Source of the DNA: Schmidtea polychroa
Lineage: Eukaryota
DNA: 64,000 nucleotides
Reading direction: 5' to 3'
Assembly (NCBI GenBank): GCA_044892525.1
Contig: CM097888.1
Span: forward strand, 2,170,001 to 2,234,000
Below are positions 29,801 to 49,000 of this stretch, in pieces. The stretch's first letter is position 1, and each line of letters opens with the position of its first letter. The position numbers were made by a program, and so were the translations under genes. The notes beneath the pieces were generated by a model, which saw only the letters and a program-made list of their open reading frames with translations, had not been told where the DNA came from and searched no databases.

Positions 29801-32800
29801 GTCCTGAAGAAGTTTTTCAACCTTGTGATATGGTTGATTGGTATAAGGAAAAGATTTTAGAATCAGATATTAGTAATAAAAATGATTACATCTGTGAAGA
29901 TGAGGGGCAGGCAGAGGCGATTCAAGTTTTATTCTCTAATAAACCTGAAGATGTTTTACATTGTGATTTACTTCCTAAAGATAAAAAGAATTTAGTTATA
30001 TTTAATGATGTTGTTAACATGAAAAATCAAGAGATTCAAAAGAGTTACTTTACAAGAGGAAGACATAATAATTGTAATGTTATTTATATATCTCAAACAT
30101 ATTATGCTTTAGATAAAAACTCTATAAGAAATAATTCTAATTGTTTTATATTTTTTAAATTAGATCGCCGTGATAAGAATATGATTTATAATGATTTATT
30201 TTCAAATGTTGAACCTGATAAGAATATGTTTGATATGTTTGTTGATAATCATTGGAAAGAAAAATATAATTATATTTATTTGGATAGAGAAGAAGCTGAA
30301 ATATGGAAAAGTTTGTTTTAGGGCTTGTCGACTTAAAAATCTGTTTTCTGTAACTCATTATTATAAAATCTACCTAATATTTTTTCATTATTTAAATCAA
30401 TGATGCTATATGTTATTGGGGTTGTATAATGTATTTTATTTATAATAAAAATTTCATTTGTCCATTTTGCTGTGAATCCTTTTTCAAATTTATTTTTATA
30501 TTTAAATATTCTTACTCGGTCACCAATTTTAAACTTTGGTTTTTCAATAACATCATTTTCAACAGGATTTATGAGTTCCAAAGGATTCAAGGAAGCATTT
30601 AAAGGTGTTAATTTTATAGAACTATGTACATCATTATTATATTCATTTACAATCTTTTGTAACAATTCATTGTTCCATTTTTGTTTTCCAATAGCAGTAA
30701 AATATTTCCACATTTTATTTTTTAATGTTCTATTTAATCTTTCAACTACGACTGCTTTTCCTTCGTTTTCTGTTGAATATAATTTAATATCATTTTCATT
30801 TAAAAACTTTGTAAAAACTTTGTTATAAAATTCTGTTCCTTTATCACACCATAAATATTTTGGAATTCTTTGATGTTCTTCAAATATATTTTCAAATGCT
30901 TCTGTAATGGAATATCCTGTTTTATTTTCTAAACACCTTGCAAAGGCAAATCTTGTATATAAATCTATTACTGTTAAAATTATTTTATATTTTTCAGGGT
31001 CTGATGATTTGGTTGGCATAAAGACTAAATCAGCAGACCATGTTTGATCTTTTTCATGTACTTGAACTTTTAAATATTTTTTATTTTTTCTAAATTCATG
31101 GTGTAATTCGTTGGCATATTTTATTTGTGATTCTGTTGGGGTTAATAAACTAGTCTTGGATATATTCTCGAGGGATCTTTCAGCATCTGCTTGTTCAATA
31201 ATCTTTTTATTAGCAACATCTTTTGCTTTCCTAGGAAGTCTTGCACCCATGGCGATCGGACTGTGTCCTAAGCCTATGAAAATTTTACCTTTCATTGCTA
31301 ATTTAACTAGAGCTCTTTGAATCTTTTCTTGGGTTGATGGATTTTGTATATTATTTAAATCATGTATTAAATTAACATCTGCAACATGTCTATCTTTAAG
31401 ATCTTCTGAATTGTAAGCAATATCATGTTTTAAAGCTGCTTGATCAATTCTATTTGTTGGTTCTTCTCCTTGTTTGGGATTATTATTTTCATCTAATCTA
31501 ATCTAATATCTAATCTTGTTCCTGGCCCAGTATAATTGTGTTTAAATAAATGTCTTTCACCTGGATATTTTTCTGTAGTAAAAGGTTTTAATATTGAAGA
31601 TGTTGTTTTTGAAGATTGCAAATCACCTCCAGCTCGTGGAATTAGATCACCTCCTGTATGTTTTTTAGTTTTTAAATGACTTGCTTTATGATGTCTTGTA
31701 ACTTGACAATTACAACTTTCACATCTCCAATATTTATTTAGAGACATTTTAAAATGTTAAAATATCAGGGATTATATCAAGAATCTCCACTAACATTTTC
31801 AATAATTGAAATCTTTCCACCATATAATTTCATTTCTATTTTCTTTTCTTCTAATATTAATGTATATACTTTAGCTTTGAAATTAGAATCCTTTGTTACA
31901 TGAAGTGTAACATCAACATTATTTATGGCTAATCTATCATCTTGATCTGATACATTTATACAAAATATAGAATATAAATTTTTGAAATCTTCTAAACTTA
32001 ATTGCGGTTCAACTTTGAAATCATAACATGTTTCAATATAATTTAGATATGGGAATATGTTTTCATTATTTTCAATATTAAATTCCATTCTATTTATTGG
32101 ATAATAAGAACTATTTAATTGAATTTGGATTGTTTTTAAATTATCATCTCCAATCTTTTGAATAAATAGATTGTTATTTTTTTGGAAAGATGAATCTGTT
32201 TCTTTGAATCCAATCAAGATATACCTTGGTCGGTATGCTAAATTTGCTACCTTTATGGAATATGTTGAACCCTCTGTCATACTAAATTCACTACAGATTC
32301 TATTTAAATAATTTACATTTATAGACTTGTTGGAATTTAATCTTTCAAGGAGTTTGATTTCAGAATGTGGGTTTAATGTCCATTCAGGTATATGCAATTC
32401 AAGTGTTGATAATTTTAATTTAGCTTTTGTATCTGCAGCTCCATAGAACAATCTTTTATCACCTTCTACTCTATTACAAACTAATTCTATAAAAACATTA
32501 TGAAGTATACGATTATAGTTTTGAAGGAATCCAAACAAGTGTTTTAATTCAAAATAACCTTCAAATTTTTTAGATTTATAAAGTTCAGCTCTTTTATAAT
32601 AACCATAATTTATATCTAAACCATCTTTATCTAAATCTCCTTTATTAACATCAGGAATCCAACCTGTTAATTCACCATATTCGTTTTTATAATCACAACC
32701 AGTCAAAATAAAATTTAACATTGTAGAATATACTCCCGGATGCAAAACAGTTTCAATTTCTGATGATCCTAGTTTTAATCTCATGTTGGAGAATAAATTT

Positions 32801-35800
32801 GGAAAGAAATTATTTTCTAGGGTTATATCTTTGTTTGCTTCAATTTCTAATTCGATTTTATAATATAATTTAGCATTACAAATATCTATTGGGTTTGATG
32901 TTTGAAGAGATTGAAAAACTATATCACCCCTACGATTTAAGTTTGCAATCGATCCTGACGTAGGGGATATTTTGCGCACTGTGAAGTATCTACCAAATCA
33001 GTACTCTCATCAAGAGCGATCGAAAATGCTTCAAAATCTCCAGCCTTTTCAATAAATTGTTTTTCACATTATCTGCTAAATCGGTTATTCTGCTTGCAAC
33101 TGTATTAGAAGACAGACTTATGCTTTCGAATAGTTTCTTTTTATCAGGAATTAAAATTTCCCTGGCCTTCAAAAAACATTCTTTTATGAATGGACCTTCT
33201 GTGAAAGGTCGCGATGATTCAGCTATCATCAGGCTTAGCTCAAAACTTGTTTTTACTGAATTTTCTGCAAATTGGCTTAAATTCGAAAAAAAGTTTCGTT
33301 GCTTATCAAATTCTATTTTAAGCTTGTTAACCTTTTCATCTCGAATTTTTCCAGTATATTTATCATATTTTTCACGATGCATAGTGTCGCAGTGCCGGCG
33401 AAGGTTGAACTCCTTTGGTACTGCGATAATCTGCTGGCATATAAGGCACTGAATTTTATCTCTCGCCTCTGTGAAAAAATATAAATTCTCCCACTTCTCT
33501 TGGAAAACCCTTCTTTCATCAACGAGTTTTCTTTTTCTAGATAACAAAGTCATTTTGTGATGGGTATAAAAAATTTTAAATATGCCAATTATTATTTGTT
33601 GATTGAAATAACATTAAATTAAAATAAACAAAAATTTAAATTATGTAAAATATATGTATTTTTAATATAACTTATATTTTTTTAATTTAAATAATTTAAA
33701 TAATAAAATCAATAATTTTTAAAATAAATAAACTGTTTTCGATAAGATTCATAAGAAAGACGTAATAAAGCCATTATTAAATTGTACTAGACGTCATATG
33801 TATAAATAAAAATAATTAAAAAGATTAGTTTTAATTTATACAGCTAATTATGATTTAAATTGTTAAAGAAGTTTGGTTAAATTACAAATCTATGTTTTTT
33901 CGTTGCGGGCCGCATGCGGCCCGCGGGCCGCGTGTTTGAGACCCCTGATCTAAAAGATTACAAAAAAACTAAATTCATAAACTTGAAATACCTCTTGCTC
34001 GCGTCTGTGTGCGCACACAGCCAAAAACAAAGAAAAGAAAAGTGCACACAGACGCGAGATCAACTAACAGCCCAACACAAAAAATTACATTGCTCGCGTC
34101 TGTGTGCGCACACAAATTCATCACACAATACAACGCGCACACAGACGCGCATTGAGCTAATAATTCACCATACAGATATATTACCATCTACCTCATACCC
34201 AACGTATAAAATGAAGTTCGAGACAATGCCACCCTTGGGTACATCAGTATTGGAGATGGTGTCGAAATATCCATTTAGCACATTGGAACGGCTAAAGGAA
34301 GAGTATAAAGATGAAATAAAATCAGAAAATGACCAAGATAGTGATGATCAACAAAAGTTCAGAGATAATATCAGAGGAATCTCAACAATATTAATGGTCA
34401 ATATGGGTAAAAAGACTTATAAACCTACGATTAAATTAAAAGTTAACAGGCATACGGTACATGCCATTATTGATTCAGGATCAGATTTGACATTGATCGA
34501 AGCAAATTTATTAAACGAAAAAGAATTACAAGCAATAGTGCCGACATTAACTGTGGCATCGGGAGCAAATGGACAACCTATCAATGTTATCGGAACATTA
34601 GATTGTGAATTAAGGTTGTGTGATCAAAAATTTAGACACGATATAAAGGTCACTAGACAATGTATGGCAGAATGTATCGTGGGAATGGATATATTGAAAA
34701 AGTTAAAAGATATTGTATTCGATTGTGCAACAGGTGAATTAGTGAAAATGACGGGTAGAAAACGGAAAACCTACAGTGTGAATGTAGTGTTTTTGGATAG
34801 AACGGTGACAATACCACCGAGGACCGAAACAGTTTGTTTCGTAGCAACACATAAGAGGTGGAAGGAGATGTTATTTTCGAACCGAGTGAGCAGTTCGTAA
34901 CTAGGTATAAAACACCTATGGTGCAAAACTTGGCAACAGTACGGGGAGGAAGGATCCCGATTAGATTAACGAATCTAGCGAGTAAATCATTGAGATTATA
35001 CCCAGAAACTAGAGTGGGTAAAGTAATACAACTATCTAACATGCAGAAAGAGTCTGAATCGATATTATCAGTAGAAGAGGATGAACGAGATCCTGATATC
35101 GAATATTACGACGCACCGAGCTGCGATAGTAAAGCCTTATCTAGAAAAGAGAATATCAGAGTTAATCAATTGTTACGTAAATATGACCAAGTTTTCGCAA
35201 AGCATGAATATGACTTAGGGCAAGTTAATATCTTAGAGCATGAAATTAAATTAACAGAAAATAAACCGATAAAAATACACCCGTACAGAATACCTCAAAG
35301 TATACAAGGGTCAGTAGACAAACAAATCAAATTAATGCAAAAATATAATATAATCAGACCCAGTAAATCTCCTTATTCCTCACCTTTGGTGGTTGTAGCT
35401 AAAAGAGACGGCTCAGTAAGATTATGCAATGACTATAGGAAATTAAATGAACAAACAGTTAGTGATAATCACCCGCTACCTTTGCTAGATTACATTTATG
35501 ATAAAATGAAAAATTCAAAGTTGTTTACTGTGATGGATGCACAGAAAGGTTTTTATCAAATAAAGATGAGCGAAGACTCAATTCCTATGACAGGATTTTC
35601 TACAAGTAATGATCACTTTGAATACTTAGTAATGCCGTTTGGATTAAAAGGAGCCCCTCCAACTTTTCACAGGGCAATGAATATCATGTTGATGGATGCA
35701 CATCACGCAATGGTATATATAGACGATATTATCATCTTCTCGGAAGATTTAGATAAACATTTGGAACATCTTGAGGACATTTTCAAAAGATTGATTATGG

Positions 35801-38800
35801 CAAATCTGAAAGTAAAGCCAAGTAAATGCAAATGGGCAGAATCGGAAGTGATTTACGTAGGGCATGTAATATCACACGATTGCGTAAGACCAGATCCGGC
35901 TAACACGGATAAAGTAAAGAATTTCCCACAACCAGTGAATGTAAAACAAATCAAAGGATTTTTAGGATTGACGGGATATTACCGGAAATTTATACGAAAT
36001 TTTTCAGCAATTGCTTTTCCTTTAACTACCTTAGAAAAGAAAGGTATAAAATTTTTATGGGGAGAAGACCAGCAACAGGCATTCGATAAGTTAAAAGATG
36101 CATTATGCAAACCACCAATTCTACGATTTCCAGATTTTAAAAGACAATTCATTGTGATAACCGATGCATGCACAAGAGGTATAGGTGCAGTTTTGGGACA
36201 GAAAGATGAAATTGGCGATGAATACGCAGTAGCATATGCAAGTCGTGGATTGAAGCCACACGAAAAAAGTTATGCTGTAATAGAATTGGAAGCATTAGCA
36301 TTAGTGTTTGCAGTGGAAAAATTTAGTCATTACCTTTGGGGCAGAAAGGTAATTTTCTATACGGATCATAGACCATTGCAATGGCTACTAAAACATAGAG
36401 ACGAAGCATCAAAATTAGTAAGATGGACATTGAGATTACAGCCATATAATATCGAAAATGTATATCGTAAAGGTAAAGCTAATGGTAATGCAGACGCATT
36501 ATCACGAATGGAGCAAGAGCCTGAGTTAGAAGATATAAAGGAAGGAAGATTAGAAGGGACAATCTTCATGCTAACAAGAGAGGCTAACACTTTGAGTGAT
36601 TTAGTAGAGGCTCAGAAAAATGATGACGAGATCAATATGATCAGACAAGCTATAGAAGCAAAGGCCATACCAAATGAATTTCAGAAATATTGGGAGAAAC
36701 ATAAAGATAAATTCATATTGGAAGGTCTAATCAAATACGTTGAATCAAGGAATAATGTAATATTAGTGCCAAAGAAATACAGAGAATCACTATTATTACA
36801 ATACAACGATGGAGCACTGGGAGGACATCTCTCAGCTAGACACACACTATCGAGATTAAAAATGAAATACTTCTGGCCATATATGAAAGATGATGTTAAA
36901 AAGTGGTGCCAATCATGTAAGATATGTATAACCAGAAGGAACACAGGTAGAAAACCACATGTTCCATTGAAACCAATGCCAGTACCGTCCTCGCCAATGG
37001 AGATGACTGCTATGGACGTACTAGGGCCGTTTAAAGAATCGAAGATGGGAAATAAATTTATCATAGTATTTTGCGACTACTTAACGAAGTGGCCCGAAGC
37101 ATTCCCAATTCCGAATCATAAGGCAGACACAATTGCCAGAATCTTTGTAGAACAAATTGTATTTAGATATGGTGTTCCGACAAAATTGCTTACCGACAGA
37201 GGAAAGGATTTCATGAGCAATTTGTTAAAAAGTATAAATGATTATTTTGGTATTTTAAAGTTAAATACCTCACCATACCACCCACAGACGGATGGATTGA
37301 TAGAAAGGTTCAATGGAACCTTGGCAAACATGTTATCATCATACGTAAACTCAGGTCAGGCGGACTGGGATGTGCACATACCATCATGTTTGTTTGCGTA
37401 TAGAAATGCTGTTCATTCAGTAACAGGAGAAACACCTTTCTATTTGATGTATTTAAGGCATAACAAGATGCCAGTGGATCTTATATTTTATCCGAAAGCT
37501 TCACAGAATTGTGATGAGGGAAATTACTTATTCGAGATGAGAGAGAGAATGCAAGAAGCCTGGGAGAAAGCAGGTTTGAACATTCGTTATAACCAAGAAA
37601 CAATGAAGGAATATCATGATCGCAAGGCAAAGGATCATGGATTTTTGGTTGGAGATTATGTCATGTTAGAGGGACATTACAACAAAAAAGGTTTATCTCC
37701 AAAATTAATGAGAAATTACAAAGGGCCTTATCAAATTTTGAAAGTCACAGAAACCAATTTAGTCTTGCAGTTAGTGGCAAAGAGAAAAGCAGAACCGATC
37801 ATGGTTCATGCAAACAGATGTAAAAAGTTAGCCCCGCCAGAAAAGGAGAAACCAAAATCCGATATTGATGAATTCAAAATAGATAAGAAATCAAAAAAGA
37901 AAACGTTAGAATCATATAAAAGTATCCTAAAGGGACAACCAGAACGATACCCTTTTCGATCTCGGCAAATCCCAAAAACTGTTACATTTCTAGCAGTGAT
38001 TAGTTGTGTTATGATCATTGGACAAGCATTCGAGGTATTTACACCTAAAGCCAGTCAACATCCAGATATCGAATATCAACGAACAGATAGAGCATTCAGA
38101 TTTCATTTAACGAATATACAATGGCATAGATATGATCTATATTTGGTAGCTGCTGAAAGAGGGATATCATTTCACTTGAATACATGGGATCGAGTAAAAA
38201 TAATAGAGGGACTTATGCCGAATACAAGTTATCTATTAGAAATCAAGACATTTTTTGCAGACCCAAATGTTTTTGCAGACGAGGGAGATTGTGTAGATAA
38301 AGCAGCATGGAATTTGAAGACTGCAAAATTTACCAAAAAAGTAGAGATTTCATATCTCGGGCAGATAGTAAGACTTACTCATCCACGGTGGAAAAGAAAT
38401 GACACATCTTCCACTCACGATTGGAGGACGAATAATAAAATTGCACTAATCGTCATATTAGAAAATGACCAGCGAGTCGAGAGATTAGTGCTCAATCATG
38501 CGTATCTAAGTAGAAGATGGAAAATCAAACCAGATACCGTGACAAAGGCGAATATTTCGTATTTGGAATTTACGGAGAGAACCGGTTGGTATACAATATA
38601 CCAAGAAATAGTAAATCTAATACCTCACACAAAGGGAGAACTAACTAGCAAAGAAGGAAAGGCTAGATTAGTGAGTATTCCTGGTTGTAAAGGAATAAAT
38701 GCTTTGGATCGGTTTAGTATTAGAAAGGTAGCGAGTGTAAAACAGCCCCGCATAACTAAATTAATTAATAATTGTAGTTGTCAAAATACGTTAAAGGGGA

Positions 38801-41800
38801 CAACGAGAGATAAAACGCCAACTTAGCTATTGTTAATTATGATAGGGGGAGTAATTTGCATGATTTTAATTTTGATATTAGCCACCCTATGGATGTTTAG
38901 ATTAAACATGCGGGATATTCGTTATTGGGAAAATATTTACGAAACCGAGGTATAGGGGAAAAGTCTCACCATATACTAGGAAGTGTAAATATATATAGTC
39001 ATTTATTTTATATGTTATTTATATTAGTATTTAGACTAATGTGGGCTCAAATGAGCATCTGTAAAATCAGACATCAGCGTATGTCGACTTTGGTTACCCT
39101 GCGAGGGTCTATCACGAAAGTGATAAACGCTGTTAATTATTTTATTTTTAGAAAAATGAATTATAACAGAGAACCAAAGCCACCAGTCAAAGCAAATCGA
39201 CGACACCCATTGGCAACGTACAATTCCCAGACTCGAGTTGAAACTGAAGTGTATAGCACCTATAAAGAAGAGTATGTATATCGGTTCATCGGAACCACGG
39301 TCGCAGCAAAAATGAATCACCTCACCTCAAACTATTGGTATTATCCCAGGAGAGTGGATATTCCAAACGATTTCAAATTCCCAGGAGGGCCTCATAGGCA
39401 AATGATGATAACGGTTATAAATAACCAAGGTAGATTAAAATTGGCAGAACTATGTAGGGAGTATGGTTCATGTCCGAAATTGGAAAATATTTGGATCCAT
39501 GCGATCAATAGGCCATTTACTGTGCTTATGGCGGATTAGAGTTACCTGTTGAATTAGAAAAACAGTGTACTCTGGAGATATACCACGCTGATGGACGAGA
39601 ACGGAAGATTATGATCCAGGCAGCGGCAGTGGATACCATAATTGTAGTAGAAATCTTAAACTTCAGGAAGCCATACGCTATAGTTAGGAAAAACGAGCCA
39701 ACTTGGATTTATAATGTAAATGAAGCTGATATACAGCAGTGTAAATCATTTGTGAGGAAGAAGTTAACCAAAGCCGAGGAGGACGAGGCTACAATTTTCA
39801 TATCGGCAGGTTTTGCCAAATCCCGAATCGAATTGAAGGAGACAATTATCCAAATCGTAATTATGGATATGAGAGGAAATAATTTACTGAGTGCGGTAGT
39901 GACTCCCAGAGACCCTGTAAAACACTACCAAACGCACCAATACAAGTTAAAGGAACCAGATATTAAAGGAAACCTCGACGAAGATGATTGTTATCATCTG
40001 ATAAGAAAGATCTGTGATAAGAAAATACTTGTAGGTATTTTGCTTAAAGATCTGACCTCGGTAGCCAATCTACCAGTGCAGCGGATATTGGGTATCCGTG
40101 ACCTTTCTGCAAATAAACTATTGGAAACCAGAGGAGTCCCAAAGATTCATGGTCATTACAGATTGGGATTCCTGACAAAGACTTTCCTACGTACGGTTCC
40201 CGGAGAGCCAAGGAATTTAGTGGTCACCAATGAGGCACTGGCGATACGTGCGGTTTATTTACATATCAGAAACGAATGGTTAGACCATATCACGATACCC
40301 CAGGAGGAATTCACTTCTGCAACTACAGCAGCGATAGTTGAACAGGAAATGACGCAAAAGAGGAGATTACCCGAGCAACCATCTACATCAGAGCAACCCC
40401 AGCCTAAGAGAAAATCACCTGTGGATCTACCACCGCCTCCAGCTATATCTATTGGAGAAGAAGATGAATATGAAACATGTGCTAGTGAAATGGAGACAGC
40501 AAAATCACCTAAACAATCATCAGGAGCTGCCTATCAGCCAAAAGATAAACCGGATAATGCGGTCAGAAAAGAAAATCCAAAAGGAGGCAAGGTGAAAAAG
40601 ATGTTAAAGAAAATGTTACTCATAAAAAGAGACAAGTCGAAGCTAAAGTTGAAGAAAGTTGTTAAACCGTCGGAAGGAAGAGACACCCAGCAGTATGGAA
40701 GATAAGAATAATAAACCTCAAAAGATATTCAGCGAACCAGATGATGACATTATGGAAGTTGCCTTTCAACCTCCGGTTAAGGAGATGCAGGAAGCAATAA
40801 AGGTTAAATCTGAACCTGTGGTAAGGCAGAAAATGTTAAAGATTGCCAAGGAGAATATCATCAAGAAACCAGTTTCGGTTGATGTGGACGGTTTCGAACC
40901 AATGTGGTACAAACGTCCGGATAGTAAATGGAAACCCAGAGCTAAGGAGTATGACTGCCAACCAGTCACGAGAATGGCAGTCAATAATAATCAAAAATAT
41001 GATGTTTATGACGTAGACGGGATCCCTTACGTGGTGTCTACAGTCATATTAACGAGTGCTCTGGATGGTAAGCCTTTGGCAGTGAGTTTTGAGCCAGAAG
41101 TCTTACAGAAGAGGAAAAACAAGTTGTTGCAGCAATACGTCGTTGCCAATAGCTACAGCACAAAGGAGCTGCACCTTTACAAAGTTCCCGACCAAGATCC
41201 CGACGATCTGGATATCTAATCCGAGAGCGTTGCCACCCAACATGTGTCGTCGAATTCAAATGTGTATAAAATGACTTAACTATTATTTGATTTGTGCTAT
41301 CCAGTGTTTTGACATTTATTATTTGTGATTGGAAACATTCATTTTGTGTTTTGTCTTATTTGATTAATTTTTATGTTTTATTGTAATACTGTTTACCAAA
41401 AGCCTTTCTTTAGTCTTGTTTTTGTCTTGTTTTCGAGACGAAAATTTTTTAGGGGGTAAGACTTGTTAGGGATAGGCCTGGGGCCTTGACTGTAAAATAA
41501 ATAAAGAATTACTATATTTAGAAATGGTATAAATAAAATAATAAAGAATTACCGAAAATAAAATATAGAGTTAAATAATTACTATAATTTGATATATTTG
41601 ATATTACTATTACTATATATAGTAATTATAAAATTGCTATTAATATAATAAATAATTAAAATATGATATAAATACTGGTTCAAAACGAGAACCAGGGGAG
41701 AAGAATTTGGACGATAAAATTGACAAGAAAGTGGGACGGAAAAACATTGAGACAATAATTTAGAAGATTATTTGATTATCATTGTAAAAAAAGAAAACGT

Positions 41801-43874
41801 GATTAAAGAATCACTGTGTTGATTATAATTTAAGAAGTTCAACATAAGTCTAAATCAAAGAAAACGTGATTAAAGAATCACTGTGTTTATCAAACACCAG
41901 ACGACATTCCGATTTAAATTTCGGATCGATTTCAAAGTTGAAAATTGGCTATAAATTGCCAAACAGAATAAACAAGAGTCAGTGAGAAAATCTCTAGAGA
42001 AAAAAAATTGGAACAGATTTGTGAACGAAGAACAGAAAAGGAGCCATTAATTTAGACAAGGTAAAAGGAGTTCAGTATTTGTGTTGTGTAAGGATAAATT
42101 ATTATCCTTGTGAAGTGAAATAGTTAAAATAAAGCGAACACAAAGCACAGACAGCGGCTTTCGTGTTACCTGGTAGCCCCAAAATCAGCCCTCTTTCTTT
42201 ACCGGCATCTTTTCAATTTATTTAGCGATCGTTGTGCTACACAGGAGCCATCGATTTCTTGCAGGCTGTGGTAAACAGTAAGGATTAATAAATCCGTTTC
42301 TCTTGTATTCTTTGCACATATATTATAAATGCCTGTTATAAATTATTAAATACATTTTTATAAAAGGAGAAAGGAGTTTTGTTTTTAATTCAGTGATTTA
42401 AACATACTCGCGCAACCACATTAAATATAACATATTTATATTTATTATTATTTATTTATCTTAATTAAATTATTGGAGTCATTGTGTTAAGATCTGTAGT
42501 CCCCGTTTTTTGATCTTAACACTATCATTTTATAACGATTTATACTGTTATATTGTATATTGAGCTCTAATTATTTAATTAAATTGTCTTTCCAAAGAGG
42601 ACCCAAAAAAAAGTTGAAATATCAACAAAAACAGATGAAAGGTGACCAAAAAATAAAAGATATTTCTGATATCATGTTTTACTTATTATAAATATATTAT
42701 TTCCCTTATTTCAGGACTAACATCAGAAGGAGTGATTCTAGTCGAGTGTACAAGTTGCAAAACTCTGAAACCAGTTCCACATGAAAGGCCACATTCCCGT
42801 ATATTTCTTTAAAATTTGATATTTGTTTCTATATTTTTTAAAATTATTATTTATTGATTTTAAATTAATTTTTTTGTAAAAGCTAATCTCAAGGTCAATA
42901 ACAACAAATCAAACTGATGATTTCATTGATTTCTTCTTTCGTGTTGATTGTTGGCCGTTTGTTTATGATGAGAATTGCATATTTGAATCTGACATTTTTT
43001 TGGATGTTTCCATTAACTGAGATTTTGATTGAAATATTTTTCCTTTTCTTAATTGGTTGACATTTTTGGAGATGTCTGTTTACCGAGGATTTTCCATCAG
43101 GATCTAGATGTTCTTTAACTGTTTGTTGCAAGGTCCTGAGTATACTTCCAATGTATATTTTCTTGCATACATTGCACGTGATGCAATAGACGATGTTTTT
43201 TCTAAAGCACATATCTTTCGGTGTCTGGCAGTTTTTCATTGTGCAATTGTTTTCTCTATTTGTGTTGTTTAATGTGTTNNNNNNNNNNNNNNNNNNNNNN
43301 NNNNNNNNNNNNNNNNNNNNNNNNNNNNNNNNNNNNNNNNNNNNNNNNNNNNNNNNNNNNNNNNNNNNNNNNNNNNNNNNNNNNNNNNNNNNNNNNNNNN
43401 NNNNNNNNNNNNNNNNNNNNNNNNNNNNNNNNNNNNNNNNNNNNNNNNNNNNNNNNNNNNNNNNNNNNNNNNNNNNNNNNNNNNNNNNNNNNNNNNTATC
43501 AGAAGTCCTACAGAAATCCAAGTACTGGATCTCCATTCTCGTCATTGGGATATTCATGCTTTTCGTCATCTTACTGCTGTTATATATGAATCGGTTATAA
43601 ATTTTGTTTATTCCCATAAATTAAAATAATATCTAGTAAAAATGGGACATCAAAATTTCAAATCAATTTCAACATTCCAAAAATGCCCAAATTTAGATTT
43701 CCTAGATTGAATTTTGACCAGTTTAGATCAAACTTCCCAAGAATGCGACTGAATGAGACATATGACGAGAATTCTCGCGGGAATTCGGAATTTGTTGAAG
43801 CGATCGAGCTGCCGGACACTGTCAATGAAGTATCATTTGATAACCCGATCTATGTTGCAGATTCCAGACAATGA
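14864..43874 (+). CDS. AMN: Amnionless-like type I membrane protein, multi-exon; internal exons only partly resolved
   Basis: Signal peptide exon 14864-14924. Exon 14968-15119 reads KLFLPNTNFANSNNWKEAQVPC (AMN: KLWVPNTDF..A.NW....PC). Exon 15171-15258 reads DFPINGEIIL. The exon from 15306 reads HWYNPFNW...VPSALDLVVFP. A TM exon ends at 43593 and the last exon 43637-43874 carries the FDNPIY endocytic motif. GT-AG introns of 43-51 nt keep the frame. Confidence 0.85.
16128..17459 (-). CDS. pogo/POGK-type DD35D transposase
   Basis: N-terminal Brinker-like HTH and CENP-B-type HTH; catalytic motifs NGDQTP, LVLDAFRCH and LQVMD with 35 residues between D2 and D3. Confidence 0.93.
   Translation of the reverse strand: MSSKRCSYTTGFKLMVIEAAERIGNRGASREYGLSEANVRHWRNNKNTLKECRSSTKAPGRGRKLFFPDVEKKLVEYVHERRFSGSSISTVEVRLKALELVKEMYPGSIFKASARWCQLFMKRNDISIRRRTSIAQRLPDDVENKLLDYQKYIINLRKRHEYPISCIANGDQTPLSFDIPSFQTLDFKGVKSVPIKTTGNEKNRFTVMLGAYGDGKKMPPYVIFKRKSLPKNIHWPAGMIVKAQENGWMNEELTKDWIKTIWCNDRKDEFRNSRRLLVLDAFRCHRMPCVKEILAKNKTDLVIIPGGMTGQLQVMDVVCNRPFKQEMRKRWNEWFFSGAPSFTASGNRRKVDLETICKWIQLSWDAVIEAIIIKGFKKCCLSNAMDGSEDDVIWQDDISDVGNEDDDMENELMFEEVDESIEIENLIKSEDENNDLCNEKNIL
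17519..17595. repeat. 16-bp tandem repeat (AATTTAATGTAATATA), about 5 copies
   Basis: Direct reading; lies in the 5' region of the pogo element. Confidence 0.85.
18488..18636 (+). CDS. AMN: AMN internal exon (5' edge in gap)
   Basis: KTFTRKFVEF...GNKCKKDYCVVNSNLQ resembles AMN RTFTR...EDC...GCVCGN; donor CAG|GTTAAA at 18636. Confidence 0.55.
18820..18914 (+). CDS. AMN: Probable AMN Cys-rich exon
   Basis: AAG|ATG acceptor and TG|GTGAGA donor; reads MVMNLIGCQMINMCRNQKLIPYKGPIGAQCK in phase with the previous exon. Confidence 0.45.
19351..19440. repeat. 35-bp tandem repeat running into a gap
   Basis: TCCAAATAAGAAATCCCAACAACCAATGAAATGCT, about 2.5 copies visible. Confidence 0.85.
21325..21553. 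mobile_element. hAT-type MITE
   Basis: TIRs CAGTGGCGTAACT / AGTTCTGCCACTG; perfect 8-bp TSD CTCATTAC at 21317-21324 and 21554-21561. Confidence 0.85.
21945..22209. mobile_element. hAT-like MITE
   Basis: TIRs CAGTGATTCTCAGC / GTTAAGAATCACTG; inner GCGGCACA/TCGGCACA motifs; flanked by a 6-bp direct repeat CTACAG. Confidence 0.7.
22362..22613. repeat. Imperfect inverted repeat starting AGTAGT and ending ACTACT; candidate Polinton terminus
   Basis: AGTAGTGTGTATATATACCCAACCCAAACAGCCCTC versus the reverse complement of 22578-22613, AGTAGTGTGTATATAGCCCTATCCCAAATAGCCCTC. AGTAGT is a common Polinton terminal sequence. Confidence 0.65.
23215..23296 (-). ncRNA. tRNA-like Pol III unit 1
   Basis: A box TAGCGCAGTGG (23289-23279), B box GGTTCAAATCC (23246-23236), T8 terminator (23222-23215). 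Cloverleaf stems are degenerate. Confidence 0.6.
23361..23543 (-). CDS. Small charged helical ORF (60 aa), probably of the Polinton
   Basis: ATG preceded by AAAA, as in the other Polinton ORFs; lies between Pol III units 2 and 1. Confidence 0.5.
   Translation of the reverse strand: MDELKERMRNELNEVKHKRMKRREEEPLEYIKELMVDNEKYRHFYMKAVDVADIRLKKMK
23708..23789 (-). ncRNA. tRNA-like Pol III unit 2 (tRNA-Cys-like 5' half)
   Basis: A box TAGCTTAGTGG, D-stem GCT/AGC, GACTGCA at the anticodon position, perfect T-arm AATGGG-TTCAAAT-CCCATT, T5 terminator. The anticodon stem is unpaired. Confidence 0.7.
23942..24023 (-). ncRNA. tRNA-like Pol III unit 3
   Basis: A box TAGCGGAGTGG, degenerate B box GGTTCAATTTT at tRNA spacing, T7 terminator. 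The 3' flank is homologous to that of unit 2. Confidence 0.55.
24050..25372 (+). CDS. Polinton-type major capsid protein (double jelly-roll); likely ATG at 24080
   Basis: Motifs LN..GDI, ENNFFPNLFS, HLFGF..NY.RIL.N..IEL, RPRYILIGF and FCINVSDQ; size and gene context fit. Confidence 0.85.
   Translation: MCVCKFYYIKMNNINLKIQEKNKLNLDYNKEFTHEIKKNDVLKISPTSGSIANLNRRGDIVFQSLQTSNPIDICNAKLYYKIELEIEANKDITLENNFFPNLFSNMRLKLGSSEIETVLHPGVYSTMLNFILTGCDYKNEYGELTGWIPDVNKGDLDKDGLDINYGYYKRAELYKSKKFEGYFELKHLFGFLQNYNRILHNVFIELVCNRVEGDKRLFYGAADTKAKLKLSTLELHIPEWTLNPHSEIKLLERLNSNKSINVNYLNRICSEFSMTEGSTYSIKVANLAYRPRYILIGFKEVDSSFQKNNNLFIQKIGDDNLKTIQIQLNSSYYPINRMEFNIENNENIFPYLNYIETCYDFKVEPQLSLEDFKNLYSIFCINVSDQDDRLAINNVDVTLHVTKDSNFKAKVYTLILEEKKIEMKLYGGKISIIENVRGDS
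25402..26816 (+). pseudogene. Zinc finger - PLA2 - retroviral-type integrase ORF, broken by a 5-nt insertion at 25642-25656
   Basis: C2H2 motif CESC..HHKASHLKTKKH; PLA2 motifs YTGPGT and DQAALKHDIAY; integrase WSADL / WCDKG / VVERLNRTLK (DD33E). Removing one ATTAG unit gives one open frame of 469 aa. Confidence 0.88.
26828..27625 (-). CDS. A32/FtsK-like DNA packaging ATPase
   Basis: Walker A GSSGCGKN, Walker B LVIFND, and the RGRH..NVIYISQ arginine finger/sensor motif. Confidence 0.92.
   Translation of the reverse strand: MDIWKPILNRHKSKFNNKVFPDNFRLLIVGSSGCGKNVLVLKMLLEDGFLDYNNLIFYSTTINQPELQLLKCGFENKLTKKAIIDIFKNQHRCPEEVFQPCDMVDWYKEKILESDISNKNDYICEDEGQAEAIQVLFSNKPEDVLHCDLLPKDKKNLVIFNDVVNMKNQEIQKSYFTRGRHNNCNVIYISQTYYALDKNSIRNNSNCFIFFKLDRRDKNMIYNDLFSNVEPDKNMFDMFVDNHWKEKYNYIYLDREEAEIWKSLF
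27641..28234 (+). CDS. pX/core-like structural protein with GKGLYLxP repeats
   Basis: EGGILPLAALIPAIIAGLSGAAGIA resembles adenovirus pX (GGFLPALIPIIAAAIG); three GKGLYL repeats. Confidence 0.65.
   Translation: MTTEESLQELINSNKNKSVVIDGKKYFIGKHVKEQVRAKIKEGGILPLAALIPAIIAGLSGAAGIAGGIATTVQKAKESQKTDLEKEKLQTEIDSMKKKGVSEGQKSVGKGLYLNPYQKVSEGQKSQGSCSVGKGLYLDPYKGRGLNDFLKNQISSSESLSSKDKDDLKKMCKSLKNGCLCKTKNGKGLYLKPWKEP
28257..28793 (+). pseudogene. Polinton ORF truncated at the fold-back; the last ~25 aa are read from the antisense arm
   Basis: The ORF crosses the junction at 28718/28719. Confidence 0.7.
28915..29508 (-). CDS. Mirror copy of the pX-like ORF
   Basis: Translation identical to 27641-28234. 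Confidence 0.65.
   Translation of the reverse strand: MTTEESLQELINSNKNKSVVIDGKKYFIGKHVKEQVRAKIKEGGILPLAALIPAIIAGLSGAAGIAGGIATTVQKAKESQKTDLEKEKLQTEIDSMKKKGVSEGQKSVGKGLYLNPYQKVSEGQKSQGSCSVGKGLYLDPYKGRGLNDFLKNQISSSESLSSKDKDDLKKMCKSLKNGCLCKTKNGKGLYLKPWKEP
29524..30321 (+). CDS. Mirror copy of the packaging ATPase
   Basis: Translation identical to 26828-27625. Confidence 0.92.
   Translation: MDIWKPILNRHKSKFNNKVFPDNFRLLIVGSSGCGKNVLVLKMLLEDGFLDYNNLIFYSTTINQPELQLLKCGFENKLTKKAIIDIFKNQHRCPEEVFQPCDMVDWYKEKILESDISNKNDYICEDEGQAEAIQVLFSNKPEDVLHCDLLPKDKKNLVIFNDVVNMKNQEIQKSYFTRGRHNNCNVIYISQTYYALDKNSIRNNSNCFIFFKLDRRDKNMIYNDLFSNVEPDKNMFDMFVDNHWKEKYNYIYLDREEAEIWKSLF
30333..31747 (-). pseudogene. Mirror copy of ZnF-PLA2-integrase, carrying the same 5-nt insertion
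   Basis: The same ATTAG x3 slippage is present; the proteins differ at two residues (EKH/ERH, PKK/PRK). Confidence 0.88.
31777..32973 (-). pseudogene. 5'-truncated mirror copy of the major capsid gene
   Basis: Lacks the N-terminal ~32 aa and abuts hAT sequence at 32974. Confidence 0.85.
32974..33947 (-). mobile_element. Truncated hAT element (Buster/SPIN, GTF2IRD2-like transposase), 5' half only
   Basis: TIR CAGGGGTCTCAAAC at 33947-33934 with the subterminal palindrome GCGGCCCGCGGGCCGC; flanking 8-mer has a central TA. The transposase reads RVFQEKW, CLIC...RRHCDTMH and, after a 1-nt frameshift, FSIALDESTDLVDTSQCA, where it is cut. Confidence 0.9.
34211..34900 (+). CDS. Gypsy aspartic protease region, frameshifted to pol near 34853
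   Basis: HAIIDSGSDLTLI and CIVGMDIL; adding 1 nt restores VATHKEVEGDVIFEP into the pol frame. Confidence 0.85.
   Translation: MKFETMPPLGTSVLEMVSKYPFSTLERLKEEYKDEIKSENDQDSDDQQKFRDNIRGISTILMVNMGKKTYKPTIKLKVNRHTVHAIIDSGSDLTLIEANLLNEKELQAIVPTLTVASGANGQPINVIGTLDCELRLCDQKFRHDIKVTRQCMAECIVGMDILKKLKDIVFDCATGELVKMTGRKRKTYSVNVVFLDRTVTIPPRTETVCFVATHKRWKEMLFSNRVSSS
34858..38826 (+). CDS. Gypsy Pol (RT, RNase H, integrase) with a C-terminal FN3-like extension
   Basis: RLCNDYRKLN, VYIDDII, TDA..GIGAVL, ELEALA, YTDHRPL, GH...C..C, AMDVLGP / TDRG / IERFNGTL. Confidence 0.97.
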   Translation: MEGDVIFEPSEQFVTRYKTPMVQNLATVRGGRIPIRLTNLASKSLRLYPETRVGKVIQLSNMQKESESILSVEEDERDPDIEYYDAPSCDSKALSRKENIRVNQLLRKYDQVFAKHEYDLGQVNILEHEIKLTENKPIKIHPYRIPQSIQGSVDKQIKLMQKYNIIRPSKSPYSSPLVVVAKRDGSVRLCNDYRKLNEQTVSDNHPLPLLDYIYDKMKNSKLFTVMDAQKGFYQIKMSEDSIPMTGFSTSNDHFEYLVMPFGLKGAPPTFHRAMNIMLMDAHHAMVYIDDIIIFSEDLDKHLEHLEDIFKRLIMANLKVKPSKCKWAESEVIYVGHVISHDCVRPDPANTDKVKNFPQPVNVKQIKGFLGLTGYYRKFIRNFSAIAFPLTTLEKKGIKFLWGEDQQQAFDKLKDALCKPPILRFPDFKRQFIVITDACTRGIGAVLGQKDEIGDEYAVAYASRGLKPHEKSYAVIELEALALVFAVEKFSHYLWGRKVIFYTDHRPLQWLLKHRDEASKLVRWTLRLQPYNIENVYRKGKANGNADALSRMEQEPELEDIKEGRLEGTIFMLTREANTLSDLVEAQKNDDEINMIRQAIEAKAIPNEFQKYWEKHKDKFILEGLIKYVESRNNVILVPKKYRESLLLQYNDGALGGHLSARHTLSRLKMKYFWPYMKDDVKKWCQSCKICITRRNTGRKPHVPLKPMPVPSSPMEMTAMDVLGPFKESKMGNKFIIVFCDYLTKWPEAFPIPNHKADTIARIFVEQIVFRYGVPTKLLTDRGKDFMSNLLKSINDYFGILKLNTSPYHPQTDGLIERFNGTLANMLSSYVNSGQADWDVHIPSCLFAYRNAVHSVTGETPFYLMYLRHNKMPVDLIFYPKASQNCDEGNYLFEMRERMQEAWEKAGLNIRYNQETMKEYHDRKAKDHGFLVGDYVMLEGHYNKKGLSPKLMRNYKGPYQILKVTETNLVLQLVAKRKAEPIMVHANRCKKLAPPEKEKPKSDIDEFKIDKKSKKKTLESYKSILKGQPERYPFRSRQIPKTVTFLAVISCVMIIGQAFEVFTPKASQHPDIEYQRTDRAFRFHLTNIQWHRYDLYLVAAERGISFHLNTWDRVKIIEGLMPNTSYLLEIKTFFADPNVFADEGDCVDKAAWNLKTAKFTKKVEISYLGQIVRLTHPRWKRNDTSSTHDWRTNNKIALIVILENDQRVERLVLNHAYLSRRWKIKPDTVTKANISYLEFTERTGWYTIYQEIVNLIPHTKGELTSKEGKARLVSIPGCKGINALDRFSIRKVASVKQPRITKLINNCSCQNTLKGTTRDKTPT
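38827..38955 (+). pseudogene. In-frame transmembrane helix and tail after the TAG at 38824-38826
   Basis: LLLIMIGGVICMILILILATLWMFRLNMRDIRYWENIYETEV*. Confidence 0.75.
38925..39539 (+). CDS. Gypsy accessory ORF, unknown function; true start uncertain
   Basis: 204-aa open frame inside the element. Confidence 0.6.
   Translation: MGKYLRNRGIGEKSHHILGSVNIYSHLFYMLFILVFRLMWAQMSICKIRHQRMSTLVTLRGSITKVINAVNYFIFRKMNYNREPKPPVKANRRHPLATYNSQTRVETEVYSTYKEEYVYRFIGTTVAAKMNHLTSNYWYYPRRVDIPNDFKFPGGPHRQMMITVINNQGRLKLAELCREYGSCPKLENIWIHAINRPFTVLMAD
39611..40705 (+). CDS. Gypsy accessory ORF: REX4/ISG20-like exonuclease fold lacking catalytic residues, plus a disordered tail
   Basis: IVIMDMRGNNLLSAVVTPRDPVKHYQT, KILVGILLKDL, IRDLS, RLGFLTKTFL, NEALAIRAVY...W. 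Confidence 0.65.
   Translation: MIQAAAVDTIIVVEILNFRKPYAIVRKNEPTWIYNVNEADIQQCKSFVRKKLTKAEEDEATIFISAGFAKSRIELKETIIQIVIMDMRGNNLLSAVVTPRDPVKHYQTHQYKLKEPDIKGNLDEDDCYHLIRKICDKKILVGILLKDLTSVANLPVQRILGIRDLSANKLLETRGVPKIHGHYRLGFLTKTFLRTVPGEPRNLVVTNEALAIRAVYLHIRNEWLDHITIPQEEFTSATTAAIVEQEMTQKRRLPEQPSTSEQPQPKRKSPVDLPPPPAISIGEEDEYETCASEMETAKSPKQSSGAAYQPKDKPDNAVRKENPKGGKVKKMLKKMLLIKRDKSKLKLKKVVKPSEGRDTQQYGR
40659..41219 (+). CDS. Gypsy accessory ORF, unknown function
   Basis: 186-aa open frame directly before the 3' UTR and PPT. Confidence 0.55.
   Translation: MLNRRKEETPSSMEDKNNKPQKIFSEPDDDIMEVAFQPPVKEMQEAIKVKSEPVVRQKMLKIAKENIIKKPVSVDVDGFEPMWYKRPDSKWKPRAKEYDCQPVTRMAVNNNQKYDVYDVDGIPYVVSTVILTSALDGKPLAVSFEPEVLQKRKNKLLQQYVVANSYSTKELHLYKVPDQDPDDLDI
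41464..42521 (+). repeat. 3' LTR, about 1058 bp
   Basis: Begins TGTTA directly after the purine tract AGGGGGTAAG and ends TAACA; contains TATA-like and AATAAA motifs. Confidence 0.75.
42895..43278 (-). mobile_element. Penelope-like GIY-YIG endonuclease fragment
   Basis: KNIVYCITCNVCKKIYIGS..RTL....KEH. Confidence 0.8.
43497..43593 (+). CDS. AMN: AMN transmembrane exon (5' edge in gap)
   Basis: YWISILVIGIFMLFVILLLLYMNR; the 43-nt intron 43594-43636 joins it in frame to the tail exon. Confidence 0.75.
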
Positions 43875-46093: not shown

Positions 46094-49000
46094 ATGAAAA
46101 ATACGAGATCATTGGAATTAAATCATATAAAATATGGGAATTTCAATGGGAATTTGAACAATAATAATAACAATGATAATAATTCATCAGATATTGATAA
46201 TTACATCTGGGCTTGCAATGACAGAGAAAGGTAAAATGCAATTAGGAAATAGTTTATCTAACCTGCTGAAATTAGAATTAGTATGCTTGGAAACGTTGAT
46301 AATCTGGCTGATATTGATAGAAGCGAGTTGAAATCCATCCAAAGCCAATTAGTAACCCTCGCAATTGAAGTAAATAAAAGACCAAAGTAAGAATAAAATT
46401 AATTTTAAATAAAATTTCTCTGCGGTTACAGATTAAATATTTGGCAAGAATTGAATGAGCATTTGAATCACATTTCAGCGCTTTCTGAAATGATTTTGCT
46501 CGATAAAAAGGTAAAGTTTAGAAATTTGAAAATTATTTTATTAATTAATTAAATTAATTAATTTGATTATCAATTATATAATTATTGATTATTATATCAA
46601 TTTAATAATGATATTATTTGCTTATCAAAATGATTATTACACTAAATTTATTCATGATCTTGTTGTGGAAACAAACTCAATTTTTTATTAATTTTAATTA
46701 TTAATTAATAATTATTTTTATTATTAAAATTAATTAATTATTCATTTATTTAGACATTAATTATTATAAAATTATTTTAACCACAATAATTATTATTAAA
46801 TTATTAATTAATTATTAATTAATTATCCAATTAATCAATCTTATTTTAATTAAATTGAATTAATCAAATCTTCTAATTATTTTAATTAAAAATCAAATTG
46901 ATTTCAGCTCTAAATAAAAATTTTTGTTAGTGCAAATGAGAAGCTTTTAAATTAATTTTAATTACTATTCAAATTTAATTAATTGTTTTTATTTTGATAT
47001 TTCATAATTCTGCACTTTCTTATAAGTTAAAAGTCGATTTTTGATAGGTTAAAAACATGCAGTATTCCCGAATATATACAATGCTGAAAAACATTATTCT
47101 TTTAAAAAGGTTTTGCTAGCTAAATCAAGGCATAATTATATTAATATCAGAAATGTATTGCAATATTCATATGAGAAACAGTTTCGAATCTTTGATCATT
47201 ATTCATCGTATTGACCAATTTGTATTTTGTAATTGACCAATCATTATTGACCAATCATCATTGACCAAACATCATTGACCAATCATTATTGACCAATCAT
47301 CATTGACCAATCATCATTGACCAATCATCATTGACCAATCATCATTGACCAATCATCATTGACCAATCATCATTGACCAATCATCATTGACCAAACATCA
47401 TTGACCAATCATCATTGACCAATTTAATTAATTGTTTTTATTTTGATATTTCATAATTCTGCACTTTCTTATAAGTTAAAAGTCGATTTTTGATAGGTTA
47501 AAAACATGCAGTATTCCCGAATATATACAATGCTGAAAAACATTATTCTTTTAAAAAGGTTTTGCTAGCTAAATCAAGGCATAATTATATTAATATCAGA
47601 AATGTATTGCAATATTCATATGAGAAACAGTTTCGAATCTTTGATCATTATTCATCGTATTGACCAATTTGTATTTTGTAATTGACCAATCATTATTGAC
47701 CAATCATCATTGACCAAACATCATTGACCAATCATTATTGACCAATCATCATTGACCAATCATCATTGACCAATCATCATTGACCAATCATCATTGACCA
47801 ATCATCATTGACCAATCATCATTGACCAATCATCATTGACCAAACATCATTGACCAATCATCATTGACCAATCATCATTGACCAATCATCATTGACCAAT
47901 CATTATTGACCAATCATTATTGACCAATAATCATTGACCAATCATCATTGACCAAACATCATTGACCAATCATCATTGACCAATCATCATTGACCAATCA
48001 TCATTACACCAATCATTATTGACCAATCATCATTGACCAATCATCATCATTTTGTGGAGTTGTAATTTGTAATAACCTGATTTAGGAAATTGTAATCGGT
48101 AGTAATTTGGTTTGTAAAATTGGAATTGTTAGGTTCGCTAGCACAGTGCACAATCTCGCTCCAAAAAATACTACGCGTATAAATAACTAAGATAATTCGA
48201 TTTCAACGATAAAATTTATTTTAAAATATAAATATAACAAATATGGTTTATATAATTTAAATAATCAAATCAATATTGCCGCAAAACTATAAAGCAAAGA
48301 CATCGGGTTTGTCCAACAGTTCTTGGATATTTCTAAGTTAGCGAGAGCTGGATTCTAATTTATCTACCGTTTCGCTCGAAAGTGAAAGGTAAGAGATTAG
48401 GGATTCCCAAAATATGCGCTATCGATTGCTACTAATAATCGGCAACAACGTTTCCTACAATCCTACCTTCTATAATTTTATAATAAACAATAAAAAAAAA
48501 CAGACAATTCAGTTTAACTAAAAAATTCTTGTCTCAAAACCCCAAAACTATATTTACAACGTATTCCTAGCAACTGTTTCAAATGGTTTAATCAAATAAA
48601 TTGACAGCCGTTTTCTGCTGGGTGAAACCCGGGTAACTATTCGGATAATCATGCAAGGTAAGTTAACTTCTAAAAAGCTAATACTTTTGTCTTTTTAGAT
48701 AATTTCCCCTGTATTTATTACAAATTGTACTTGGAAAGTATTTTTTTAAGTATTTTAAATAAGTATTAAAACATACTAAAACAAATTTAGTTTTATTTGT
48801 ATATTATTTAGTTTGGTTATAAATATTTAATTTAATTTACAACTGTCTATAANNNNNNNNNNNNNNNNNNNNNNNNNNNNNNNNNNNNNNNNNNNNNNNN
48901 NNNNNNNNNNNNNNNNNNNNNNNNNNNNNNNNNNNNNNNNNNNNNNNNNNNNNNNNNNNNNNNNNNNNNNNNNNNNNNNNNNNNNNNNNNNTAACCAAAA

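Follow-up and report, generated by a model that had tools for sequence, protein, structure and literature searches.

A REX4/ISG20-type pseudo-exonuclease domain in env-bearing Ty3/gypsy elements of Schmidtea polychroa, apparently kept under selection after loss of its catalytic residues

Introduction

The rotifer retroelements Juno, Vesta and Terminons are described as carrying a DnaQ-like 3'-5' exonuclease as an extra open reading frame, ORF3, downstream of pol (PMC5408684). According to this description, ORF3 is of the RNase D-like DEDDy type, with intact residues, a change of DEDD to DEED and near-neutral evolution (PMC5408684). Here we analyse a stretch of 64,000 nucleotides from S. polychroa (GenBank assembly GCA_044892525.1, contig CM097888.1, positions 2,170,001 to 2,234,000 of the forward strand), hereafter the window, in which a Ty3/gypsy long terminal repeat (LTR) element of a family termed A likewise has an additional frame, ORF2, behind pol. 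Unlike rotifer ORF3, ORF2 encodes a REX4/ISG20-like DEDDh domain fused to a jelly-roll domain, resides in env-bearing elements and occurs in dead forms that appear to be under strong purifying selection. Intact relatives from the sister families B and C share the DEED change with the rotifer proteins; as they have the ExoIII His, they are not of the RNase D-like DEDDy type, the rotifer type being known here by description. To our knowledge, retroelement-borne DEDD nucleases have been known only as intact-looking DEDDy ORFs.

In overall structure, the elements studied here resemble the giant planarian Gypsy element Burro/GYPSM1 (PMC6431247), with which they share the polyprotein, gag, an in-frame mononegavirus-type env, and protease, reverse transcriptase (RT), RNase H and integrase; the ubiquitin-like and BCL2-like matches that would correspond to parts of Burro stay below the cut-off here. 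Burro is described as over 30 kb long with BIR, ankyrin and MATH cargo, whereas family A measures 15.3 kb and lacks these, and the section that describes it names no exonuclease (PMC6431247). A fold kept after catalytic loss is reported for Maelstrom, EXD1 and Exuperantia, where the DEDD domain serves RNA binding (PMC5408684, PMC7968707). All three genes belong to the host, and two act in an anti-transposon pathway, whereas ORF2 stands on the transposon side and belongs to another subfamily; unlike the host pseudonucleases, the aligned ORF2 relatives have no conserved Cys/His zinc motif. Orchid Ty3/Gypsy elements also carry an AlkB-like fold, titled a functional m6A demethylase (PMC9289625); the jelly-roll of ORF2 differs in lacking the metal triad and in being joined to an exonuclease domain. 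In the open-access literature we found no REX4/ISG20-type or jelly-roll-fused nuclease described in such elements, though the supplement of the Burro genome paper or Repbase entries could mention the ORF.

Results

The nuclease-like domain of ORF2

The original prediction, made from the letters of the window, had proposed a retrotransposon-borne, apparently catalytically dead REX4/ISG20-type exonuclease. Its motifs lie in a forward frame spanning 39512-40705, with TIFISAGF at 39791-39814, ILVGILLKDL at ~40025-40054 and VTNEA at ~40223-40237. The gene and its two domains are placed as follows.

39156..41219, + strand: ORF2 accessory gene, split over three frames in this copy (breaks near 39530 and 40678)
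39213..39670, + strand: N-terminal double-stranded beta-helix (cupin/AlkB-like) without HxD...H metal triad (from VIA, Foldseek, ESM Atlas as a lead only, and conservation)
39746..40288, + strand: REX4/ISG20-type DEDDh pseudo-exonuclease domain (from profile, ESM Atlas and fold searches)

The original prediction had overlooked the jelly-roll that precedes the nuclease-like domain.

Scanned directly, the domain matched no DEDDh family in Pfam and 0 PDB sequences at E<=10, and three word-indexed protein searches returned nothing at E<=0.001. The Pfam and PDB miss was a failure of sensitivity, which was overcome through the sister families. The domain in the window reached 38.2 bits (E 6e-14) against a profile built from 38 cellular-type REX4/ISG20-like proteins, where the best of 500 shuffled sequences scored 7.2 and the reversed sequence -1.1. 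Against a profile of 31 intact two-domain relatives, family A excluded, it reached 112.1 bits (best shuffle 5.9). A 15-sequence family profile matches ISG20L2 (7yw5, 4e-13), ISG20 (1wlj, 3e-9) and SDN1 (5z9x, 2e-7); PF00929 is matched by nine of the 15 alignment members. RNase_T clusters lead the ESM Atlas search at 0.95, and all ten of the best family-bearing matches agree.

An AF2 model from the 15-sequence alignment reached a mean predicted local distance difference test (pLDDT) score of 64.8, mostly 70-88 in the nuclease-like domain; a single-sequence model (pLDDT 36.8) was set aside. The top match of the model was ISG20L2 in Foldseek and ISG20 in VIA (Z 16.4, rmsd 3.4, 161 aligned; next Z 13.4), with Exuperantia also among the VIA matches (Z 10.2). 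By profiles and predicted model, the domain is thus a REX4/ISG20-type DnaQ-like fold, as originally proposed. ISG20, ISG20L2, REX4/REXO4 and SDN1 are its best profile and structure matches; unlike these cellular DEDDh enzymes, the family-A domain is altered at five of five catalytic positions, joined to a jelly-roll and encoded by a mobile element.

Sister families with an intact nuclease

A genome search with PF00929 gave 20 matches from 43 candidates, 19 of them in copies of related elements, with ORF2 proteins that match the family-A one at E values down to 1e-23, and a query with one of the 19 exposed another high-copy family. Families B and C have a gag-env-pol-ORF2 layout, with ORF2 at the same position and an intact D-E-E-H-D site. 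Between A and B/C, the nuclease domain is 20-24% identical and RT 53-55%. The only strong non-element PF00929 match (locus L043) is ERI1-like by eye and unrelated to ORF2 by phmmer. No host donor gene was found by this search, which intron-split REX4/ISG20L2 genes would escape.

The original view of a captured host nuclease kept dead therefore needs amending: capture of an active nuclease, disabled later, is likely, but it was not a one-off dead capture, because sister families keep DEEDh in their own ORF2, at the corresponding position.

Other elements were sampled for the gene. No ORF2 profile match below E 0.003 was present in two BIR-bearing giant loci (60 kb each), so that the idea of giant Burro elements with the same ORF2 was dropped for the loci sampled, nor was any present downstream of env in seven other env-bearing loci. 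A further high-copy env-bearing family (G000:C1:110163057 and similar) has a 3334-aa ORF1 and no downstream ORF2 match.

Loss of the catalytic residues in family A

Aligned to the intact sisters, family A has Ser for the ExoI Asp, Gly for the ExoI Glu, Leu for the ExoII acid, Leu for the ExoIII His and Glu for the ExoIII Asp, i.e. a non-conservative replacement at four of the five catalytic positions. The former catalytic codons lie at 39803, 39809, 40052, 40217 and 40232. The His of the LVGH motif, named as lost in the original prediction, is indeed replaced, but it is not among the five DEDDh residues, and the lost ExoII acid and ExoIII His had gone unnamed.

The census covered the 30 best matches of subfamily A1, 17 hand-picked copies of subfamily A2, the 19 loci of family B and 14 others, of which 12 are C and two are old and B-like. 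An eight-position family-A signature is identical, and the five replacements are the same, in 44 of 47 family-A copies (30/30 A1, 14/17 A2), and the intact site occurs in 0/47. D-E-E-H-D is complete at 11/19 B loci, the others being partial or decayed, and at 11/12 C loci. Judged from sequence, the family-A domain is thus very likely without nuclease activity, in line with the catalytic death first suggested.

Activity through a rearranged site using Asp299 and Glu360 is very improbable. The Asp one residue ahead of the ExoII site, Asp299, is kept in 45/47 family-A copies and Glu360 in 46/47, and the ExoIII Glu is found in 59% of dead rows. Yet neither of the ExoI acids nor the general-base His is left, a single D11G, D94G or D154G change is reported to abolish ISG20 activity (PMC7756014), and Asp299 is not conserved in dead lineages.

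Selection on ORF2

We compared A1 with A2, using two A2 copies per ORF, by the uncorrected proportions of nonsynonymous (pN) and synonymous (pS) differences. In the nuclease-like domain pS was 0.72-0.74 and pN 0.06, and the resulting pN/pS of 0.083-0.086 is the lowest of four ORF2 regions (N-terminal domain 0.166, linker 0.30, C-terminal region 0.11-0.13). For comparison, pN/pS was 0.06-0.09 in protease, 0.06 in env and 0.01-0.025 in RT and integrase. Jukes-Cantor corrected ratios (dN/dS) were 0.022-0.030 in five of five comparisons with bootstrap upper bounds <=0.068, rough values as dS is near saturation. Because both subfamilies share the replacements, the constraint acted after catalytic loss, and the pseudo-nuclease is in all probability kept under selection. 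The sister copies and the low ratios thus agree with the earlier view of a gene that is kept and not decaying. Neither condition named as refuting the original prediction, lack of a DEDDh profile or structural match and loss or random decay of the ORF in sister copies, came true.

That ORF2 is a neutral relic on an active element can practically be set aside. The window copy is broken, and the intact length of 690 aa is complete in just 11 of the 30 best-matching copies; such per-copy breaks are normal post-insertion decay and also occur in ORF1, while dN/dS far below 1 between subfamilies, the shared replacements and the near-saturated silent divergence refute the idea.

A branch-specific acceleration after loss is not supported by the trees: dividing the A-to-B/C distance by the B-to-C distance gives similar values for RT (~5) and the nuclease domain (~4).

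Silent divergence between A1 and A2 is uneven along the element (loci L032 vs L126 and L130; L008 vs L103 and L111): pS rises from 0.21-0.25 in RT/RNase H through 0.48 (env) and 0.53 (integrase) to 0.71-0.78 in ORF2. This suggests recombination between the subfamilies, with the 3' accessory block swapped in as an older module.

Wider relatives and number of losses

An unindexed HMMER search against 1.84 billion representatives returned 1991 proteins at E<=0.001. Among the best 150 of these, 36 span both domains, covering >=80 and >=150 profile columns; 21 of the 36 are intact, and the other 15 are dead with varied replacements. Ten of the 36 were checked and are unnamed or hypothetical proteins on 1-17 kb contigs; the two-domain proteins are presumably element-borne. 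Scans of IMG/VR and metagenome contigs gave 64 and 206 pattern matches, of which 0 were confirmed. Three proteins of 733-804 aa (P0044, P0065, P0097) contain as many as four nuclease-like stretches in tandem, some of which are without catalytic residues.

Three trees were computed, all omitting nine near-duplicate or partial rows from the S. polychroa genome. The two-domain tree (42 rows, catalytic columns removed, quick tree, LG+G4) needs five changes between dead and intact labels, at least three of which are forced; the approximately unbiased test rejects a single dead clade (p 0.005). In the tree of the N-terminal domain six label changes are needed, at least two forced by strong branches. 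The nuclease-only tree (80 rows, 20 labelled cellular by the author, catalytic columns included) speaks against repeated loss, as it puts 21 of 21 dead rows on one branch with SH-aLRT 92; this single branch may reflect long-branch attraction. Intact element-type rows lie between the dead branch and the cellular group in this tree, and since they separate dead from cellular rows, an active ancestor is supported. On balance, we favour repeated loss of catalysis. Family A and five other clusters form a clade with no intact member (support 90).

Repeated loss is also what cheating between families would predict, with the dead protein borrowing the activity of B/C ORF2, or poisoning it, by hetero-oligomerisation, and dead and intact families have both been recently active in one genome. 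We consider this quite improbable, as the A and B/C domains are just 20-24% identical and the all-dead clade of family A is old (it includes no fewer than five further clusters, at under 50% identity), the loss long predating co-residence.

Residues common to dead and intact forms are F215, G241, P251-R252, D275, G313-D316, W375 and D377.

The partner domain and the remaining parts of ORF2

The nuclease domain is always fused behind the jelly-roll domain. Residues 20-171 of the AF2 model form a double-stranded beta-helix, with a pLDDT of only ~45-77 there. VIA matched residues 20-169 to OsALKBH1 (Z 10.9), ALKBH6 (10.5) and ALKBH5 (10.2), at this model confidence only a tentative guide to the subfamily; Foldseek returned cupins, and ESM Atlas Cupin_2 at 0.81, as a lead only. 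A P-N pair, a Lys, a His and a Glu are conserved, and P-N, His and Glu are invariant in intact and dead forms. Metal ligands of the HxD/E...H or HxH...E...H type were sought in 42-50 aligned rows, from alignments and not by superposition, and not found: there are one conserved His and one Glu, but no HxD or second His.

The jelly-roll, or the C-terminal region, could be the acting part of ORF2, with the dead nuclease serving as a scaffold that supports it, dimerises or recruits host proteins. The invariant P-N, His and Glu fit this, as does the pattern in the nuclease domain of dead lineages, where ex-active-site positions are unconstrained and core residues are kept. The dead domain is, however, more constrained than the jelly-roll (pN/pS 0.085 vs 0.166) and its positive charge is kept, which makes a scaffold role unlikely. 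Like the intact domains, the family-A domain is basic (K+R 28-30, D+E 22-23); as its charge is unchanged, we infer that nucleic-acid binding has been retained.

Three further features of ORF2 bear on its expression and localisation.

39131..39151, + strand: splice-acceptor-like pyrimidine tract and AG ahead of the ORF2 ATG, splicing inferred
40358..40415, + strand: bipartite nuclear-localisation-like motif in the variable linker of ORF2, by pattern match, localisation predicted
40872..41216, + strand: conserved C-terminal region of ~115 aa, A1/A2 identity 79-82%

A T-rich tract and an AG 1-8 nt ahead of the ATG are present in seven of the ten contexts shown (A1, A2, C) and would allow expression from a spliced RNA; no acceptor-like site is at that place in the three B contexts. 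Contigs of one run, presumed to be RNA, covered the element in 30 of 30 bins, and among the matches listed there was no joint at the putative acceptor. The bipartite motif is kept in A1 and A2 despite a linker identity of 61%, and would allow nuclear entry. The C-terminal region has no Pfam match below E 0.05.

Element structure, spread and the window copy

All four full-length A1 copies examined measure 15.3 kb, with LTRs of 1.1 kb and an LTR-pair identity of 99.8-100%. Family A thus spread recently while carrying the dead version; for family B, LTR pairs are 99.8-99.9% identical in three of four contexts. ORF1 of family A (~3500 aa) comprises gag with CCHC knuckles, a weak ubiquitin-like match, env, protease, RT, RNase H and integrase. 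The env is a mononegavirus-type fusion glycoprotein (PF24664, E 7e-82) in the same open frame upstream of RVP, likewise in B and C. Below the cut-off are ubiquitin in A (E 0.011) and Bcl-2 in B and C (E 0.004), with no Bcl-2 in A. A Pfam scan found no BIR, ankyrin or MATH domain in family-A ORF1 and ORF2.

The 781-Mb genome is AT-rich, and matches to the domain are concentrated on four very large contigs. In a genome search with the domain, 150 of 1040 candidates were scored, all significant and about half in one tandem array. This array (G000:C3:106.49-106.52 Mb and 107.05-107.22 Mb) has more than 60 units with a period of ~2.87 kb, each containing an internally broken piece of family-A ORF2; it is a satellite built from the ORF2 gene and possibly a small-RNA source. 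Two of the four full-length A1 copies (G000:C1:1611684, G000:C2:175018707) sit within AAT microsatellites.

The element in the window consists of the following parts besides ORF2.

34169..42521, + strand: 5'-truncated env-bearing Burro-type Ty3/gypsy LTR element, family A, subfamily A1 (DNA identity and protein mapping)
34169..38952, + strand: 3' half of ORF1 with protease, RT, RNase H, integrase, hydrophobic stretch, FN3-like region (by eye) and transmembrane segment (Pfam RVP, RVT_1, RT_RNaseH, Integrase_H2C2, rve)
41464..42521, + strand: 3' LTR, TGTTA...TAACA, with a G-rich tract at ~41450-41458 just before it

These pol domains and the LTR element copies confirm that the gene is retrotransposon-borne. 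The window copy aligns from 34170 to the four 15.3-kb copies at 91-96% DNA identity and lacks the 5' LTR, gag, ubiquitin-like, BCL2-like and env parts; its ORF1 has a frameshift near 34855 and a stop at 38824-38826. From its reading frames, this copy probably yields no protein with the nuclease-like domain. As it is truncated and frameshifted, the biology was read from sister copies.

The C-terminus of ORF1 (37985-38952; locus L032) has, after integrase, a hydrophobic signal-like stretch, an FN3-like region seen by eye, a transmembrane segment and a short tail with a tyrosine motif and a PDZ-ligand-like end, at an A1/A2 pN/pS of 0.15. The FN3-like region has no Pfam match. This part resembles a receptor-like membrane protein within the polyprotein.

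Adjoining the element, a Polinton/adintovirus-like block (29515-32997) contains a Pox_A32 ATPase, an integrase with a phospholipase-A2-like N-terminus and a double-jelly-roll capsid; an inverted duplication, seen as mirror-image repeats, extends over ~27520-29630. Between block and LTR element, a Spin-doc zinc-finger ORF (PF18658, 32993-33613, - strand) is likely a fragment of a DNA transposon. At 46972-47970 lies a tandem array of 14-bp repeats that shows a higher-order duplication of 449 bp.

Discussion

The loss of catalysis in several lineages, together with retention of the domain, indicates a selected function that is independent of cutting. We propose, at a probability of roughly 40%, that ORF2 acts as a nuclear, non-cutting RNA-binding adaptor of counter-defence that would shield the element from RNA surveillance by the host. 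An ancestral element would have captured an active REX4/ISG20-like nuclease behind a jelly-roll domain, and disabling would have come later. Cutting would be dispensable in several lineages, binding being the selected step. The protein would be made from spliced RNA and enter the nucleus. Its target may be a step of host RNA defence: silencing guided by small RNAs, or a trimming enzyme of the REX4/ISG20 kind, which would find its substrate or partner occupied. The decoy or suppressor role of the original prediction is likewise hypothetical. This reading is suggested by the host-directed nature of the other cargo (ubiquitin-like, BCL2-like) and by viral and host DEDD precedents, as far as described (PMC6431247, PMC7968707, PMC5408684). 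Arenavirus ExoN is reported to suppress innate signalling and Maelstrom to bind RNA without cutting (PMC7968707), and a catalytic mutant of ISG20 is reported to retain antiviral activity (PMC7756014).

Several observations weigh against this proposal, besides the single dead branch of the nuclease-only tree. The gene is absent from the other env-bearing families sampled and hence not essential to an env-bearing lifestyle, and three of five B and C proteins have no clear linker motif by simple monopartite or bipartite nuclear localisation patterns. The 36 library proteins come without genomic context. The residues common to dead and intact forms may do no more than maintain the fold. In dead forms, the positions of the old active site are free to vary, which speaks against preservation of a 3'-end pocket. 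The selection data are equally compatible with a protein scaffold.

ORF2 might instead bind the element's own genomic RNA in cis, as a Rev/Rec-like chaperone for export, stability or packaging, with no action on host defence. This reading and the scaffold role are the main rivals. Complex retroviruses have accessory genes of comparable arrangement, and the separate downstream ORF, the acceptor-like site, the nuclear-localisation-like motif and the basic domain would all suit such a role; 3'-end processing of element RNA has been suggested for the rotifer DEDDy ORFs (PMC5408684). The idea remains doubtful, since the related env-bearing families sampled lack the gene and the nuclease domain diverges between A and B/C much faster than RT, beyond what is usual for a core replication factor.

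A bolder version of the counter-defence reading, unlikely to hold in full, is that a clade of animal env-bearing retroelements has an undescribed two-domain protein, a metal-free AlkB/cupin-like reader joined to an ISG20-like nuclease, directed against nuclear small-RNA silencing; it would be an active trimmer of small RNA or dsRNA in some families, with at least three conversions to a non-cutting, sequestering decoy. If true, the protein would mirror Maelstrom and EXD1 on the side of the transposon, and a retroelement would encode a suppressor of piRNA silencing.

One genome holds matched active and dead ISG20/REX4-type nucleases in young element families, the dead form being as constrained as the protease, and so offers a natural comparison of cutting and binding in the role of a retroelement nuclease. 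If the target is host silencing, ORF2 would be a transposon counter-defence protein built on a fold that hosts deploy against transposons and viruses.

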